From: Yuukianura sp. NJ FZ-2021
Taxonomy: Eukaryota
DNA: 64,000 bases
Assembly: GCA_046563655.1 (NCBI GenBank)
Contig: JAJCTO010000009.1
Span: 372,001-436,000 of the forward strand
Reading direction: 5' to 3'
The notes beneath the pieces are model-generated. The model did not search any database. It saw only the letters and a list, made by a program, of their open reading frames with translations, and had not been told where the DNA came from. Positions 47,921-64,000 of this stretch are shown here, in pieces (positions within the stretch are counted from its first letter, which is position 1; each line of letters begins with the position of its first letter). The translations under genes and the position numbers were made by a program.

Positions 47921-48325
47921 TGTAGAGCCCCGGTTTTCCCCCATTAGGTTAGGGTCAGTTGCCCCTTGAGGTTAGGGTGTGGCCCTAGATTAGTGTTAGG
48001 TTAGTGTAGTTAGGCTTTAGTGTAGTTTAGCCTGTAGTGAGATTTGGTTTGGCGTTTTAGCGCGAGTTTCGAGTAGAGTTGGCGTGGTAGAGGAGAGAGA
48101 GGCTGGTTGTGCCAGTCAGTCGGTTTTTGGTGTTTGGTTCAGCATGAGCTGAGACTTTGTATCATTGTGTACAAATAAATATCTTTTATATTTATTTGTC
48201 TCTGTGTCTTTGTGTTGTTCCTTGGTGTCCCTTTTGGTCCTCAGTTTTGTTGCATGAGTCCGGCAGTGCTCGGATCGTAGTCTGGAGGCCATCTTTGGCA
48301 GTTTGGCGTAGCACGAGGTGCTACA
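47921..48325 (+). repeat. Gypsy 5' LTR
   Basis: tgtagagccc...gaggtgctaca, identical by eye to 62339-62743. Confidence 0.98.
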
Positions 48326-48337: not shown

Positions 48338-48566
48338 TTTGTGAGTGTTACTGCTGAGGTCAAAGGTCACAATGGTGTAACAACACATGGTGAGTGTTTA
48401 AAAACTTTTATTCTGTGTCACGTGGGATCAAGACATCATGTAATTGTTCGTGTGTGGACGTTACCCTTGGTCAAAGGGAATTGGCCATAATTCAGAAGTG
48501 GATCATCTCTAAATCTTGTACATAGAAGGAGGAAGTTGCCGAAACAACTTCCACTGGATCCACTCC

Positions 48567-56000: not shown

Positions 56001-59000
56001 AAGGATCTGCAACACTCATTGAAATTGTCAATTAGTTTCCTGAGATTCTGGGAATTCTCATTGGTGATTGGTTTTGTGCTCAGCAGTTGTTTGAGAATTG
56101 AGAACACAATTTCCCGGTTGTTCTCATATCTGGATTTCACCAAATTCCATGCTTCTTCAAAATTGTTGTTTGTACTGCTGAAGTTGCGAATGATTAGTTC
56201 AGCCTCGCCCTTGAGAGTAGGTTTGAGGTAGCCGAACTTCTCACATCCCGAGAGTTGATTGTTTTCAACGATGTAAGTGGTTATGAGATCACGGTAGGCT
56301 GGCCACTTCTCATACCTTCCATCAAATGTGGGTAGTTCAAGTTTTGGTAGCTTGACCCTTGACCCAGCAGTGGCAGAGGCGGCAGCTTGTGACTCAATTG
56401 AATACAAGACATCATTGATTTGGTCAATCATTTCGTTGCTCACGTTAGCAGCAGTAGCTTGAGCCATGACTTGAGCATCGTTCTGACAGCAGGCGAAGAG
56501 AGACGAACTCAACTCGGAGAGAGACGACTCCAGTTTGGTTAGTTTTCTTCTGTCGGAAGCGATGACTGATTTTGTGGCCTTACTCGGGTCATCTGCATAT
56601 TCAGTGACCTTGTTGAAGAGGAATTGAATGTTGATATCGAGTCCCTTGTGCATCATGCGTAGTCTGGTCATTTCAGGATCTATCGTTGGAATAGCGATTG
56701 ATTTGGAGGATGATGCAGACTCGGTAGTTTTCGACTTAGTAACGACTGGTACGGGGATTCTTGGAGCAGTTTGTGGATTGACTTCAGTTGACACTGGTGG
56801 TGTCACCGGATCCTCCTCTGTTTGAGATCTAAGTTTTGATTTAGACCGAGTCTCCATTCCTTCTGTATTGTTGTCTGACATACTGAAACTACTCACTCAA
56901 ATGGCGAAAGTTAAACACACCTACAACCTTTAATGTTAGGTCAATTGATTAATGCTCGTTGGTTACTGATACCGGTTACCAAAGATCCAACGAACCGTCT
57001 TTCGGCACCATGTAGTTGATCGCGGCCATAAGATGTGCAGAATTCAAGTGAGAATGGATTTGAAATGATGTGAACGATGTTGAGATGAATCCAGTAATGT
57101 CAAATAAACCAATTACTTTTAATTAAATACTTAAATGAAAAGAAAAACAATTAATTGAAAGTTGTATTGAAAGATCGAATTGAATTGGTAGAGAATTCTA
57201 AGACTGATTGAATTGTGTATGTATTCTATGCTATGTTCTATTGTTGAAGACGTGGAGCTGACGTGGAGGAATAGGCGGAGCAAGTAATGCGCATAACTAA
57301 GCTCCTGCTCTTTCCACTTCTTAATACTACACTTAAATCTATAGGAGAAGTGTTGAAATTAAAGAGAAAATAATTCTGACGCTAACGCCAGAACAGGGTG
57401 TCCGCCAGCAAGGAACCCTTACAGAAGGTCCCCAGAAATGCAAAAGATCATCAATGATCAAATCCAAGAAATGTTGAAGGAAGGTCTAATCAGACCTTCA
57501 AGGTCACCGTATGCAGCTCCAGTTGTGGTGGTACCAAAGAAAGACGGCAGTAAAAGGCTCTGTGTGGACTATACGTTGCTCAACCAGCAAACGAAGACGA
57601 ATGCTGCGCCTATGGAGAGTGCTCATTCCATTTTACACACAATTCCTGCTGGTTATTGGTACACAGTGATTGATCTTGCGAAAGGATATTGGCAAGTCAA
57701 GTTGCATCCGGACAGTGTAGAAAAGTCAGCGTTTGTGACTCAAGATGGCCACTACGAGTTTTTAGTGATGCCATTCGGATTAAAAAACAGTCCAAAGACG
57801 TGTCAGCAGTTGATGCGGAAAGTCATCCAAGGATTCTCCAAGTTTGCAAAGTGCTACATGGACGATATCATTTTGTTCAGTAAGACTCTGGATGAACATT
57901 TAGTGCATTTGGAAAAAGTGCTGAGTAGGTTGAAGATGGCAGGACTCACCATCAGTCCTCAGAAGTTGCAGTGTTGTAGGAGAGAGGTTGATGTGTTGGG
58001 CCATCGTTTGACAGAACATGGTCTTCAAAAGTGTCCTAAAAAAGTGAGTGCCATAGTGGATTTTCCTACTCCGAAGAACGTCAAAGAAGTGCAAAGTTTC
58101 CATGGAATGACTCAGTGGTATGCTCCGTTTATTGAACATTTTGCTGCAAAGGCAGAGCCACTGTACCGACTTCTAAGGAAGAATCAACCATGGGTTTGGG
58201 GAGCAGAACAGGAGAAGTCGTTCCAGTCACTAAAAGAGTCAATGTGCAATGATGTGATGTTACATGCAGTTGACTACGACCATCCGATTTTGTTAAAGTG
58301 CGATGCGTCGAATTATGGGTTGGGTGCGGCCTTAACTCAAGTGATTAATGGTGTGGAGAGACCAGTGATGTTTATCAGTAAAACACTCCGAAAATCAGAA
58401 ATTCGGTACCACATTTATGAAAAAGAGTTGTTCGCGATTATTTGGGCCTACCGGAAGCTCAGAGAATACATTGAAGGTCAGAAGTTCACAATTATAACTG
58501 ACAACAAAGCCTTATCATTCCTCAACAAGATGAAGGAGCGGAAAGCAAAATTGGCTTTGTGGGATTCGGAGATCAAGTCATGGGGTGTCGACATCAAGCA
58601 TCGCTCCGGGAAGGATAATGTGGAGGCGGACGCGCTTTCACGTGCTCCAGTTCCTGTCGATGAAGCGGACCTCGATTTTGAAGATGATTCCCCGGCGTAC
58701 ATGTACTCGCCAACGGCCGTGGCGTTACTGTCGTTTGATACTCCTACGATCCAGAGGATGAAAGACGAACAACGAAGAGATCCTGATTTAGTGAAAGTGA
58801 TCAGTGACATTGAAAGTGGTAAAAGTGTAAAAAGTTACGTCCTAAAGAATGGCGTACTAGGCAGAGAAGTCAAGAGTTTTGACTTCTATTCCGATAATGG
58901 TTTCTGCGGAGACATTATCGAGGGGCGGTGTGCGGAAACGAGGCCTCAATCTTCCGACATCACTCTAGAGGACGTTGACAAAAAAGAGTTCAGCAGTTCC

Positions 59001-60251: not shown

Positions 60252-62327
60252 GTGCTCTGTCCAGTTATTCTTTTTCAGTGTTTTGGAAGTCATTTCCTGA
60301 CTTCCATCATGCCATCATCCGTCGTTAGTGATGTGGTGCCAGTTAGTGCAAAGAAAAAGAAAACTCAAGATTACTGGAAGAAGAGACGTGAGTGCGAACT
60401 AAAGTATGGTACTGCCGATAAGAGTCCACAGGAACGTAAAGACATGTTTTTATTTGAATCTGCTCAACGGAATTCATGGGATGAATTTCCGTATAAGTAT
60501 CATCCTCACACGTCGCTAGTGAAAGTGTTTCGGTTGTGGGACGCAGTCATGGAGCCTTCAAAACAACAAGTTCAGGACGAAAGACGTTATGTTCCTATTC
60601 GTATTATTGATACGGAGGCTAAGTTCATGGTTATGCTTGGTTTGTTGAGAGCTGAACGAGTTATAGGTGTGGACATGGAGTTTAGTCATGACAAAGGCTA
60701 TCGTGATCGTTATGTTTGTTCATTGCAGATTTCGACCAAGGAATCGGATTTCATCATTGATCCATTTGAAGTGCCTATTCAGATGCAGATGTTACGTGAG
60801 GTGTTCTCCAATGGCAATTATGTCAAGATTATGCATGGCAGTGTTAATGACCTACTCATGTTCCAGCTTCATTACCATATCTTCTTCGTGGGTGTAATCG
60901 ACACGCAAATTGTGGATTCTGTCTTTGGAGGGACTCAAGGACGTGGATTGGACAAAGTGATTAGTGACTACTTGCCTGGTGTGAAAGTGAGCAAGGATTG
61001 TCAACTTGCTGACTTCAGGATCCGTCCAATTGAAAACATGCATCCAGACATGATACAATACGCCAGGAGTGACACACATTTGTTATTACGTGTGTTTGAA
61101 GTCATGAAGCAACGTTATGACTTCAAAAGTGAAAGTGTTAAGTGGAATGAGGTTGTCAAATTATGTAACGATTTGTGCTTAAAAGTCTATAAGTTTAAGC
61201 AGCATCCAAGTGCCCGTGAGATTCTGGCTAAAGTGGACATGCCCACTTTAAGTGTAAGTGTGATGGAGCAAGTTGTCGGCTGGAGAGACATGGTTGCCAG
61301 GGAGATGGACGTTCAACCAAAAGAAGTCATTGCGGACATTACTTGTGCTCAATTGGTTAAGGAAGTGCCAAAAGATAAGTTAAGTGTGGAGAAAGTGATT
61401 GGCAAAAATGTTTTGTCATCTGGTCATTTGGATATGCTAATTCCCATTTTTGTGTCTACTAAAATAGTGGGTGGAGTCACAGAAGTTGGTGCTACAACTT
61501 CTACGGTGCAAAAAGTGACTCTGGATTTATCCGTTTTTGATTGGGATACACCAATCACTAAAGAAGATGTAAAAAGAATGGAACAGGAAGTTGCTCAATC
61601 AACTTCCAAAAGTGTAAATTTTCCTGCTACAGTGCCAAAAGTGACATTGGATTTGTCTGCTTTCGACTGGGATACGCCAGTCACAAGAGAAGATATTGCC
61701 AGGATGGAGGCGGAAGTCGCACAAACGACTTCCCAAAATGTACATAGTGGTGCTCCAGTGTGTGTTGACATTGATGGTTTATCGGATGTTTCCGATTTGT
61801 CAGATGTTTCTGACCAACCATTGGAGGAGGACGAAGAGGAGTCTCAAGTGGAAGTGGAATGTGCAGTGGAGGAATTCATGGATAGTGATGATGGTGACAT
61901 GCTGATTGTCACAGTTTCTGAAGATGATCTTCGTGAGGTGGTAGGATTACCACAAGAAGAGAATCCGAATGCGGTTTACGAACCACAAGTTCCACCGGAA
62001 GAGCCCGAAGAAGTGATGGATGCTGCCGAGGAGGAGCCGCAGGAGGAAGTAGCTGCAGCCGAAGGAAGAGATCGGCGAGATCGGCGAAACTGTCCCCACT
62101 GTGGAAGCGAGCGGCATACCGATGTGATGTTTTGCCGCTTTCGTCATTTGCCGGAAGCAGAGGCCAGGAAACGTCATCGGAGGCGACGGCTCAACATGAA
62201 TCGCCGTCGGAATCAGCGTATTCGTGCCGAGGAAGAGCGTTTGCAACGAGAAGCAGACCGTGCAGCCAGAGAAGCGGAGGAAGATGGAGCTCGTGTCCCG
62301 AGGATTGCCCCGGAACCCGATCTTTAG
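60252..62327 (+). CDS. Gypsy ORF3: RRP6/EXOSC10-like DEDD-Y 3'-5' exoribonuclease, HRDC-like domain, acidic tail and basic Zn-knuckle-like C-terminus
   Basis: GVDMEF...CSLQIST...DFIIDP...KIMHGSVND...IDTQ...QLADFRIRP...YARSDTHLLL parallels the RRP6 exonuclease motifs (AVDLEH, CLMQIST, HGADSD, QLADWRIRP, YARDDTHYLL). VVGWRDMVAREMDVQPKEVI parallels the HRDC start. The ORF lies between the pol stop and the PPT. First ATG at 60309. Confidence 0.88.
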   Translation: MLCPVILFQCFGSHFLTSIMPSSVVSDVVPVSAKKKKTQDYWKKRRECELKYGTADKSPQERKDMFLFESAQRNSWDEFPYKYHPHTSLVKVFRLWDAVMEPSKQQVQDERRYVPIRIIDTEAKFMVMLGLLRAERVIGVDMEFSHDKGYRDRYVCSLQISTKESDFIIDPFEVPIQMQMLREVFSNGNYVKIMHGSVNDLLMFQLHYHIFFVGVIDTQIVDSVFGGTQGRGLDKVISDYLPGVKVSKDCQLADFRIRPIENMHPDMIQYARSDTHLLLRVFEVMKQRYDFKSESVKWNEVVKLCNDLCLKVYKFKQHPSAREILAKVDMPTLSVSVMEQVVGWRDMVAREMDVQPKEVIADITCAQLVKEVPKDKLSVEKVIGKNVLSSGHLDMLIPIFVSTKIVGGVTEVGATTSTVQKVTLDLSVFDWDTPITKEDVKRMEQEVAQSTSKSVNFPATVPKVTLDLSAFDWDTPVTREDIARMEAEVAQTTSQNVHSGAPVCVDIDGLSDVSDLSDVSDQPLEEDEEESQVEVECAVEEFMDSDDGDMLIVTVSEDDLREVVGLPQEENPNAVYEPQVPPEEPEEVMDAAEEEPQEEVAAAEGRDRRDRRNCPHCGSERHTDVMFCRFRHLPEAEARKRHRRRRLNMNRRRNQRIRAEEERLQREADRAAREAEEDGARVPRIAPEPDL

Positions 62328-62743: not shown

Positions 62744-64000
62744 ATGTTACACCAGCGACTGGACTTCAATTTGTGGAGAACCCACTTAGTTTTTTGCAGA
62801 CGCATGTCTGCGATATGCTGTGGAAGACTATTGATACAAATTTGTCGGTGTCGTGTTTTTAGGGCCTTTTGCACTGGAGCACTTAAGGCGGAACAGTCGA
62901 ATATGTTTCACATTGAGCTAGCTTCTAGCGCGGTCTTTGTCTTGCTAATCTAACGTAAGTTTCAGCGTAAGTAGTTTACGGCACTGATTTTGAAACCTCA
63001 GTGCGGCTTAGTATATCAAGTTACAACGTATCTGAGTAGCCTGCTCTAACATTTCTCTTTGTATCAAATTTAAGTGGAAAGTTTCCCGGCCATTTGACAA
63101 ATTCATTGTCAAACGCGTCACATGGCATCATAACACAGTTTGTATGTTACACCAGCGACTGGACTTCAATTTGTGGAAAACCCACTTTTAGTTTTTTGCA
63201 GACGCATGTCTGCGACAGGCTGTGGAAGACTATTGATACAAATTTGTCGGTGTCGTGTTTTTAGGGCCCTTTGCACTGGAGTACTTAAGGCGGAACAGTC
63301 GAATATGTTTCACATTGAGCTAGCTTCTAGCGCGGTCTCTGTCTTGCTAATCTAACGTAAGTTTCAGCGTAAGTAGTTTACGGCACTGATTTTGAAACCT
63401 CAGTGCGGGTTAGTATATCAAGTTACAACGTATCTGAGTAGCCTGCTCTAACATTTCTCTTTGTATCAAATTTAAGTGGAAAGTTTCCCGGCCATTTGAC
63501 AAATTCATTGTCAAACGCGTCACATGGCATCATAACACAGTTTGTATGTTACACCAGCGACTGGACTTCAATTTGTGGAAAACCCACTTTTAGTCTTTTG
63601 CAGACGCATGTCTGCGACAGGCTGTGGAAGACTATTGATACAAACTTGTCGGTGTCGTGTTTTTAGGGCCCTTTGCACTGGAGTACTTAAGGCGGAACAG
63701 TCGAATATGTTTCACGTAGAGCTAGTTTCTAGCGCGGTCTCTGTCTTGCTAATCTAACGTAAGTTTCAGCGTAAGTAGTTTACGGCACTGATTTTGAAAC
63801 CTCAGTGCGGGTTAGTATATCAAGTTACAACGTATCTGAGTAGCCTGCTCTAACATTTCTCTTTGTATCAAATTTAAGTGGAAAGTTTCCCGGCCATTTG
63901 ACAAATTCATTGTCAAACGCGTCACATGGCATCATAACACAGTTTGTATGTTACACCAGCGACTGGACTTCAATTTGTGGAAAACCCACTTTTAGTCTTT
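62744..64000. repeat. Satellite B continues (runs off the window end)
   Basis: The monomer resumes in register at atgttacaccagcgactgg. Confidence 0.98.

Follow-up and report, generated by a model that had tools for sequence, protein, structure and literature searches.

A Ty3/Gypsy retrotransposon of Yuukianura sp. with a third open reading frame predicted to encode an RRP6-type exonuclease core

What does a retrotransposon carry between pol and its 3' end when the gene found there is not an envelope gene, and what would the element gain from it? The question is raised by a 64,000-nucleotide stretch of DNA from Yuukianura sp. NJ FZ-2021 (GenBank assembly GCA_046563655.1, contig JAJCTO010000009.1, positions 372,001 through 436,000 of the forward strand; herein the window, in whose coordinates all positions are given). 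It contains a Ty3/Gypsy long terminal repeat (LTR) retrotransposon (47921 through 62743, + strand) with a third open reading frame (ORF3; 60252 through 62327, + strand) of 691 residues counted from a GTG, or 692 codons stop to stop from 60249. The open frame occupies the entire gap between the pol stop and the polypurine tract (PPT), and the last two bases of its own stop (TAG, 62325 through 62327) lie inside the 13-nt purine tract at 62326 through 62338. Because the frame spans this distance between two identical LTRs (405 bp, no differences), in an element flanked by a clean ATGT target-site duplication (TSD), ORF3 belongs to the element. A sequence-only reading of the window had described ORF3 as an element gene for an RRP6/EXOSC10-like exoribonuclease, captured from a host mRNA and of a kind that it did not know to have been described for Gypsy elements; the first half of that interpretation, the element gene and its RRP6-like core, is borne out below, and the second half, host EXOSC10 capture and novelty of the cargo, is not.

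Comparisons of profile, sequence and predicted fold agree that ORF3 encodes an RRP6-type 3'-5' exoribonuclease core, with an N-terminal wrap, a DEDD-Y exonuclease domain and an HRDC domain. The exonuclease domain (60600 through 61112, + strand) matches Pfam DNA_pol_A_exo1 over residues 117 through 287 (E = 1.1e-27) and has a complete catalytic pentad: D141-x-E143 in ExoI (the D codon at 60672), D200 in the HGSVND motif of ExoII, and Y270-ARS-D274 in ExoIII at 61059 through 61073. A phmmer search against all Protein Data Bank (PDB) sequences gave 16 matches at E ≤ 0.01, 13 of which are RRP6/EXOSC10 entries (1.2e-27 to 9.2e-24); RNase D was matched at 1.8e-5, as against about 1e-27 for yeast RRP6. 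The five catalytic residues of ORF3 align with the pentad of yeast Rrp6, and the alignment continues through the HRDC segment. Matches to human EXOSC10 begin near ORF3 residue 60, opposite about residue 236 of the complete human chain, so the helical segment that precedes the exonuclease (60339 through 60599, + strand), which carries an RPQ..RN..FP..HP motif conserved among the relatives described below, is RRP6-like too.

The predicted fold leads to the same family. An AlphaFold2 model of residues 30 through 440, built with 22 aligned sequences, has a mean pLDDT of 88.3 and a pTM of 0.84, with disorder only past model residue 378 (about ORF3 residue 407). Foldseek against the PDB places RRP6 cores from Trypanosoma brucei, human and yeast at ranks 1 through 12 (326 to 357 aligned columns, E = 1e-20 to 6e-18); Escherichia coli RNase D follows at 1e-14, and Nibbler (4e-10), NrnC and TbRND come far lower. 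An identity as RNase D, WRN or Nibbler was thus rejected, RRP6 being far better by both phmmer and Foldseek. The HRDC domain (61260 through 61397, + strand) is matched weakly by Pfam (residues 337 through 382; E = 0.0062, 16.9 bits, under the 23.8-bit cut-off); however, the RRP6 alignments extend to about residue 381, relatives of ORF3 score as HRDC down to 6.5e-11, and the model matches cores made of exonuclease and HRDC together.

Two parts of a full-length RRP6 were looked for as well. No PMC2NT domain is matched by Pfam at E ≤ 0.01, and about 55 residues precede the homologous region; past about residue 381, ORF3 has no similarity to the RRP6 chains compared, including their C-terminal exosome-associating region, a region that is itself poorly conserved. 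Nor does ORF3 resemble an env product: no transmembrane segment follows the first ATG (60309; highest 19-residue Kyte-Doolittle mean 1.39), and the sole hydropathy window above 1.6 in the frame is in the leader before it. With no signal peptide or transmembrane anchor, and with a nuclease fold, env was rejected. The sequence-only reading had anticipated much of this, placing the three exonuclease motifs where we find them, noting that the catalytic residues were kept, PMC2NT apparently lacking and an HRDC-like domain present, and setting env aside.

If ORF3 is RRP6-like, to which RRP6 proteins is it closest? Scanning 1.84 billion cluster representatives with ORF3 by HMMER gave 4103 hits at E ≤ 1e-3, 15 of them at E ≤ 1e-30. 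In the best hit (P0002; E = 2.3e-71, 37% identity) and in about twenty further proteins, the match to ORF3 begins at the N terminus of the protein. These proteins are 250 to 700 residues long and lack PMC2NT; canonical RRP6 proteins (such as P0015 and P0017, which have PMC2NT) match from residue 170 to 320 onward and reach at most about 125 bits. In an alignment of 22 sequences (A1), the common parts are the N-terminal RPQ..RN..FP..HP motif, the exonuclease and HRDC. Behind HRDC there follow a variable acidic linker, usually with an acidic-flanked Trp, a C-x2-C..GH..C knuckle and a basic tail. Most relatives have a start Met of their own at the N-terminal motif, about 10 residues further in than the first ATG of ORF3 (near ORF3 residue 30), which makes this ATG, at 60309, the likely start (672 residues; 60309 through 62327, + strand). 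All five catalytic residues are kept in 19 of the 22 aligned sequences, at 23 to 36% identity.

In a tree of 82 rows, ORF3 falls among 22 rows that are split from 60 rows on the canonical side with an SH-aLRT support of 99. A Cys/His pattern near the C terminus (C-x2-C..H..C) is present in 17 of the 22 rows of this clade and in 1 of the 60 others. Two springtails, Orchesella dallaii and Allacma fusca, supply the named members of the clade; its other members derive from assemblies of metagenomes or of sequencing runs. The best-scoring named canonical RRP6 proteins are from Rozella, Trichinella and Pelomyxa, that is, a fungus, a nematode and an amoebozoan, and identity to any canonical RRP6 is about 30%; ORF3 therefore leans to no one host group. 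P0013 and P0101, initially grouped with the short proteins, fall on the canonical side of the tree. The partner of P0013, P0153 (Aphelenchoides besseyi, 1080 residues), joins an RRP6-like exonuclease and HRDC to an RNB (RRP44-type) domain in its gene model, through a genuine fusion or a merging of predictions.

Searching proteins of near lengths with alignment A1 returned only P0058, and a search of longer proteins (1233 to 3520 residues) gave no match, which is weak evidence against long fused forms. A homologous-protein search with ORF3 residues 60 through 420 returned nothing, scanning metagenomes with ORF3 brought up 19 pattern stretches and no relative, and viral-contig scans with P0002, P0004 and P0003 gave no relative. 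The ESM Atlas returned only canonical RRP6 clusters, at 0.88, under the 0.9 mark.

One springtail member of the clade ties the exonuclease to a Gypsy-type integrase. P0006 (Orchesella dallaii, CAL8079250.1, 810 residues) has a Tf2-type SH3 segment within its first 137 residues; residues 3 through 137 align to the C terminus of the integrase of the Gypsy element in the window (33% identity, E = 4e-23), and residues 165 through 488 align to ORF3 residues 35 through 360 (E = 3e-43), in the same order as in that element. The succession of integrase C terminus and exonuclease thus appears to recur in a distant host, inside one predicted protein. Given this colinearity, any capture of the gene was old and predates the family.

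A metagenome scan with another member, P0008, led to two loci, L001 (encoding P0008) and L002 (encoding P0024), which share a 3.9-kb block (L001, 9178 through 13034; L002, 6087 through 9926) at 82% identity between unrelated flanks. The block comprises the clade member, a frame of 270 to 376 residues with no Pfam match, and a tandem-repeat end; directly upstream of it, both loci have a C2H2 zinc-finger frame.

Is ORF3 maintained in other copies of the element? The stretch is contained in four public DNA runs (two studies, two organism codes). Contigs of these runs align to 57396 through 62760 in 111, 424, 486 and 186 pieces, with identities from above 99% to below 90%, and 30 of 30 bins of that interval are covered in every run. 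As every bin is covered, ORF3 is present in diverged copies too. Forty of the 591 differences are listed; among these, synonymous changes make up 11 of the 16 in ORF3 and 17 of the 24 in pol, as against about 21% expected from random change (binomial p = 6e-5 for the 16 in ORF3). All 12 listed indels (of 54) fall in the LTR, and none of the six listed joints connects pol to the LTR by skipping ORF3; in one contig, 119 nt inside ORF3 are replaced by 15 other letters. These partial data suggest that purifying selection acts on ORF3 to much the same degree as on pol. Within pol itself, contigs from all four runs diverge into unrelated sequence at 58976/58977, and those of X2 and X4 also before 58929; this break (58929 through 58977) could be a boundary common to other element families or a recombination point.

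Taken together, the clear RRP6 core, the clade, the pentad and the synonymous bias say that the enzyme is probably used and not merely carried. We consider it probable that ORF3, with its RRP6-type core, is a regular accessory gene of this Gypsy lineage, as opposed to a recent accident.

What, then, would the enzyme do? RRP6/EXOSC10 is the catalytic subunit of the nuclear RNA exosome, and PMC2NT and the C-terminal region tether it to Rrp47/C1D, Mtr4 and the exosome core. ORF3 shares with it the N-terminal wrap, the DEDD-Y exonuclease, HRDC and an identical catalytic pentad, and RRP6/EXOSC10 is its best match by sequence and by fold; it differs in having no PMC2NT and nothing RRP6-like past HRDC, in falling outside the canonical clade and in being encoded by a retrotransposon. 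Without PMC2NT, and with nothing RRP6-like past HRDC, ORF3 should act as a free, distributive 3'-5' exoribonuclease, that is, a stand-alone trimmer of RNA 3' ends. Targeting would be provided by its own C-terminal part, and the enzyme would trim or remove untemplated 3' tails, or mature or protect the 3' ends of element RNA, allowing that RNA to escape tail-marked decay. We put forward 3'-tail trimming or 3'-end maturation and protection of element RNA tentatively, as a role that is plausible and yet falls short of an even chance. It is in keeping with a report that 3' uridylation restricts the LINE-1 retrotransposon (PMC6191937).

The C-terminal 280 residues on which this targeting would depend comprise two copies of a 32-residue segment, an acidic stretch, a C-x2-C-x4-H-x5-C motif and an Arg-rich tail. 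The two copies (residues 421 through 452 and 463 through 494; 61512 through 61733, + strand) are 42 residues apart and each has F-D-W-D. Behind HRDC, at the same place as these repeats, most relatives have at least one Trp between acidic residues; the F-D-W-D repeats and the acidic-flanked Trp of the relatives recall W-acidic motifs, which bind kinesin light chain. The Cys/His motif (62091 through 62135, + strand), which the tail follows, was found as a pattern, with a match to Pfam DUF7575 at E = 0.0059. T. brucei RNase D (TbRND) is likewise a DEDDy exonuclease followed by C-terminal CCHC-type fingers, which reportedly help to set its preference for U tails (PMC7797062); the ORF3 finger is a pattern match. 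TbRND, as described there, differs in having no HRDC and four fingers and in being a mitochondrial host enzyme, and Foldseek matches of the ORF3 model to TbRND entries (E = 5e-8 to 4e-7) are far weaker than those to RRP6.

The same core could instead serve counter-silencing, by degrading or over-trimming antisense RNA or the precursors of piRNA or siRNA, or by competing with host RRP6. An RRP6-like enzyme that lacks the partner-docking parts and keeps its catalytic residues would suit such a role; its fold is also like the EXO domain of Nibbler, and roles like that of mut-7 were raised for comparable ORFs in rotifers (PMC5408684). Against this, RRP6 cores are ten orders of magnitude better than Nibbler by Foldseek, and a pure decoy needs no conserved catalytic residues. 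A decoy alone is disfavored by that conservation, and counter-silencing as a whole seems to us rather unlikely. On present indications, we would rank removal of 3' tails above attack on antisense RNA or small-RNA precursors, and both above a function in the particle as an extension of Pol.

The last of these roles turns on how ORF3 is expressed. A feature that the sequence-only reading had not remarked on is that ORF3 shares the frame of pol, from which it is separated by a single TAA (60246 through 60248), with 20 open codons before its ATG. Readthrough of this stop would place the exonuclease in the particle with reverse transcriptase (RT) and integrase (IN), where it might act on primer, template or cDNA ends, and in the springtail model P0006 an integrase C terminus and the exonuclease are indeed one protein. 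A shared frame, however, arises by chance one time in three, and most relatives have their own Met at the N-terminal motif. The 100 nt of RNA from the pol stop, with a hairpin from 38 nt after it, fold only modestly better than shuffled sequences (z = −1.84; 11 of 200 shuffles as good) and show no convincing readthrough structure. A splice-acceptor-like tract also precedes the ATG, and we regard the Pol extension as doubtful, with readthrough of the in-frame TAA the less likely route of expression.

The most likely route, judged from its sequence signals, is a spliced subgenomic mRNA. The acceptor-like tract, TATTCTTTTT-CAG (60266 through 60278, + strand), lies 31 nt past the pol stop, with the ATG 30 nt further on; sites of this kind (9 of 10 pyrimidines, then CAG or TAG) occur twice on the + strand of the 7.3-kb Gypsy internal region. 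GTGAGT is found twice in the leader, at 48341 and at 48390, the latter as a donor-like ATG|GTGAGT (48387 through 48395, + strand). The message would use an acceptor at 60278|60279 and a donor near 48390 or 48341; an exon that begins at 60279 would be in the ORF3 frame, and joining the leader ATG to 60279 keeps that frame. Gypsy env is expressed from a spliced subgenomic RNA. In Drosophila gypsy and other errantiviruses, env lies where ORF3 does here, between pol and the PPT, and ORF3 would probably be made from such an RNA too; unlike env, it has no signal peptide or transmembrane segment and has a nuclease fold. A spliced subgenomic message is also given as the usual form of ORF3 expression in LTR elements in PMC5408684. 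A 9-bp hairpin (60284 through 60306) stands immediately before the ORF3 ATG.

Two further accounts concern the origin and the maintenance of ORF3. Recent capture and truncation of the EXOSC10 mRNA of the host itself by this element family would explain an intronless ORF3 whose closest cellular family is RRP6/EXOSC10. Identity to canonical RRP6 proteins is no higher than about 30%, though, ORF3 groups with 21 other short proteins that share its N-terminal motif and stand apart from the 60 canonical-side rows, the canonical proteins that score best come from a fungus, a nematode and an amoebozoan, and a springtail Gypsy sequence has the same order of integrase and exonuclease; we think recent capture very unlikely, and the sequence-only proposal that host EXOSC10 mRNA was captured finds no support on these grounds. 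Hardly any weight is left to a functionless passenger, open only because the copy is young, for although the identical LTRs mean that this copy has had too little time to decay and the rotifer ORFs show no clear departure from neutrality (PMC5408684), most listed ORF3 differences among diverged copies are synonymous, none of the 12 listed indels is in ORF3, and the pentad persists in 19 of 22 relatives at 23 to 36% identity.

Several points nevertheless weigh against ORF3 as a conserved, functioning accessory gene, the lack of a clear departure from neutrality in the rotifer ORFs among them. The copy data are the 40 listed of 591 differences and the 12 listed of 54 indels, and the contigs may include the sample from which the window came. 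No RNA run is listed among the public runs containing the stretch, so expression, splicing and readthrough are all read from the DNA. The tree comes from an IQ-TREE quick search, has many long branches and lacks an outgroup, and of the 22 sequences of alignment A1, one has lost the pentad (P0010, KQDRF) and two have a single change in it (P0004, DGDYD; P0034, DEEYD). P0006 is a gene model, and the continuity of its integrase and exonuclease parts could stem from a predicted intron. At L001 and L002, no RT or integrase was found within 13.5 and 11.9 kb, respectively, by tblastn with the gag, protease, pol and BEL proteins of the window and by Pfam on 41 frames of at least 75 residues; not every clade member is therefore demonstrably in an LTR element, and some may be domesticated or belong to other kinds of element. 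A profile of the C-terminal knuckle and tail of 16 relatives scored the ORF3 C terminus no better than 2000 shuffles, and for this reason the ORF3 knuckle is described as a resemblance, a pattern match, with no claim of homology to the module of the relatives. The substrate could be DNA. Lastly, the Gypsy copy at 47921 through 62743 is non-autonomous, since a BEL/Pao element splits its pol.

How does ORF3 compare with what is known of extra genes in LTR retrotransposons? Rodriguez et al. (2017; PMC5408684) reported that two LTR retrotransposons of bdelloid rotifers, Juno and Vesta, have an ORF3 for a DEDDy exonuclease, and found such ORFs in Athena/Terminon elements as well. The kind of cargo is therefore already known, and the sequence-only suggestion that it was undescribed does not hold. 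Apart from reviews of that case, the literature we searched records DEDDy exonuclease ORF3s in LTR retrotransposons only from bdelloid rotifers. According to that paper, the rotifer ORFs resemble one another more than they do cellular RNase D, mut-7, WRN or Rrp6, have DEDD changed to DEED, lack transmembrane domains and have no known function. Like the Juno and Vesta ORF3s so described, ORF3 of Yuukianura is an extra frame that follows pol and precedes the 3' LTR in a Gypsy-like element, encoding a DEDDy exonuclease with no transmembrane segments; the rotifer ORFs were compared by description only, and 0 of the 30 proteins that we looked up are named rotifer proteins. In both cases, the ORF is read as having an auxiliary function and not as an envelope, and a Cys/His motif is reported for some rotifer members.

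The two cases also differ. The rotifer motif is DEED, whereas the DEDD-Y of ORF3 is intact; the rotifer ORFs are termed RNase D-like and HRDC is mentioned nowhere in the paper, whereas RRP6 is the best match of ORF3 and is joined by HRDC. Of the four major LTR lineages in rotifers, three have a dUTPase, whereas a Pfam search found none in pol of the Gypsy element here. The host is a different one, with large satellite arrays and nested transposable elements, and the relatives are in springtails. The clade may be wider than the rotifer case.

The remainder of the element is of conventional build. The 5' LTR (47921 through 48325, + strand; 405 bp, TG...CA) is followed after 2 nt by a putative primer-binding site (48328 through 48339, + strand) that starts TGGCGACCG. 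The gag frame (48513 through 50099, + strand) has a CCHC knuckle (zf-CCHC, E = 0.00093), and pol, in −1 phase relative to gag, begins with an aspartyl protease (50078 through 50691, + strand, up to a nested insertion; Asp_protease_2, E = 9.2e-6). After the insertion, pol resumes with RT, RNase H and an integrase made up of H2C2, rve and SH3_Tf2-1 (57396 through 60248, + strand). The PPT, AGAAGGAGGAAGG (62326 through 62338, + strand), overlaps the ORF3 stop and adjoins the 3' LTR (62339 through 62743, + strand; 405 bp). With TG..CA LTRs, a TSD, a primer-binding site, a PPT, a CCHC gag and a pol in the order protease, RT, RNase H and IN, the element has the features of Ty3/Gypsy.

The nested insertion, also absent from the sequence-only reading, is a BEL/Pao element foreign to the Gypsy element (50692 through 57395, − strand), with LTRs of its own (50692 through 51076 and 57011 through 57395; 385 bp, four differences) and a 5-bp TSD, GGGTG. 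A nested insert should be the younger of the two, yet the outer Gypsy LTRs show 0 differences in 405 positions as against four in 385; at the BEL rate, the chance of no difference between the Gypsy LTRs is about 0.015 by a rough estimate. The composite may have been copied whole, with proteins from other copies, or gene conversion may have acted between the Gypsy LTRs.

The Gypsy element is inserted in a satellite array with a 402-bp unit, which runs from 35773 through 47920 and resumes at 62744; the TSD (ATGT) flanks both ends of the element (left, 47917 through 47920, + strand; right, 62744 through 62747), and the satellite unit reads on past the insertion point. The copies of this array (35773 through 47920 and 62744 through 64000) are about 96% identical to each other. 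A second array, with a 253-bp unit, occupies 1 through 14191 (about 56 copies, 96% matches), and with two such large arrays, the setting looks heterochromatin-like. Between them lie a LINE whose endonuclease and RT are split over several frames (20749 through 24653, − strand), a 53-bp minisatellite (25851 through 26373) and a frame (28251 through 29645, − strand) with a weak match to a Tc5 transposase C terminus, under the Pfam cut-off.

The extra genes of retrotransposons offer a rare view of what limits the spread of these elements. The present case adds an element outside the rotifers whose RRP6 core is clear, a clade of relatives from springtails and environmental eukaryotes, a conserved catalytic pentad and a synonymous bias among copies. 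At about 410 residues and with a confident model, the compact protein offers a handle on what a retroelement gains from a trimmer of RNA 3' ends. Going further, the 22-member clade could represent an old, retroelement-borne pool of RRP6 cores across distant animals (the present host, springtails and many uncultured eukaryotes), independent of the rotifer DEDDy ORFs, that undoes host RNA surveillance of the element, for example by stripping off U or A tails that tag element RNA for decay or through destruction of small-RNA precursors. We judge this unlikely as it stands, but if it were true, the pool would constitute a transposon-encoded antagonist of RNA-based defence in animals.

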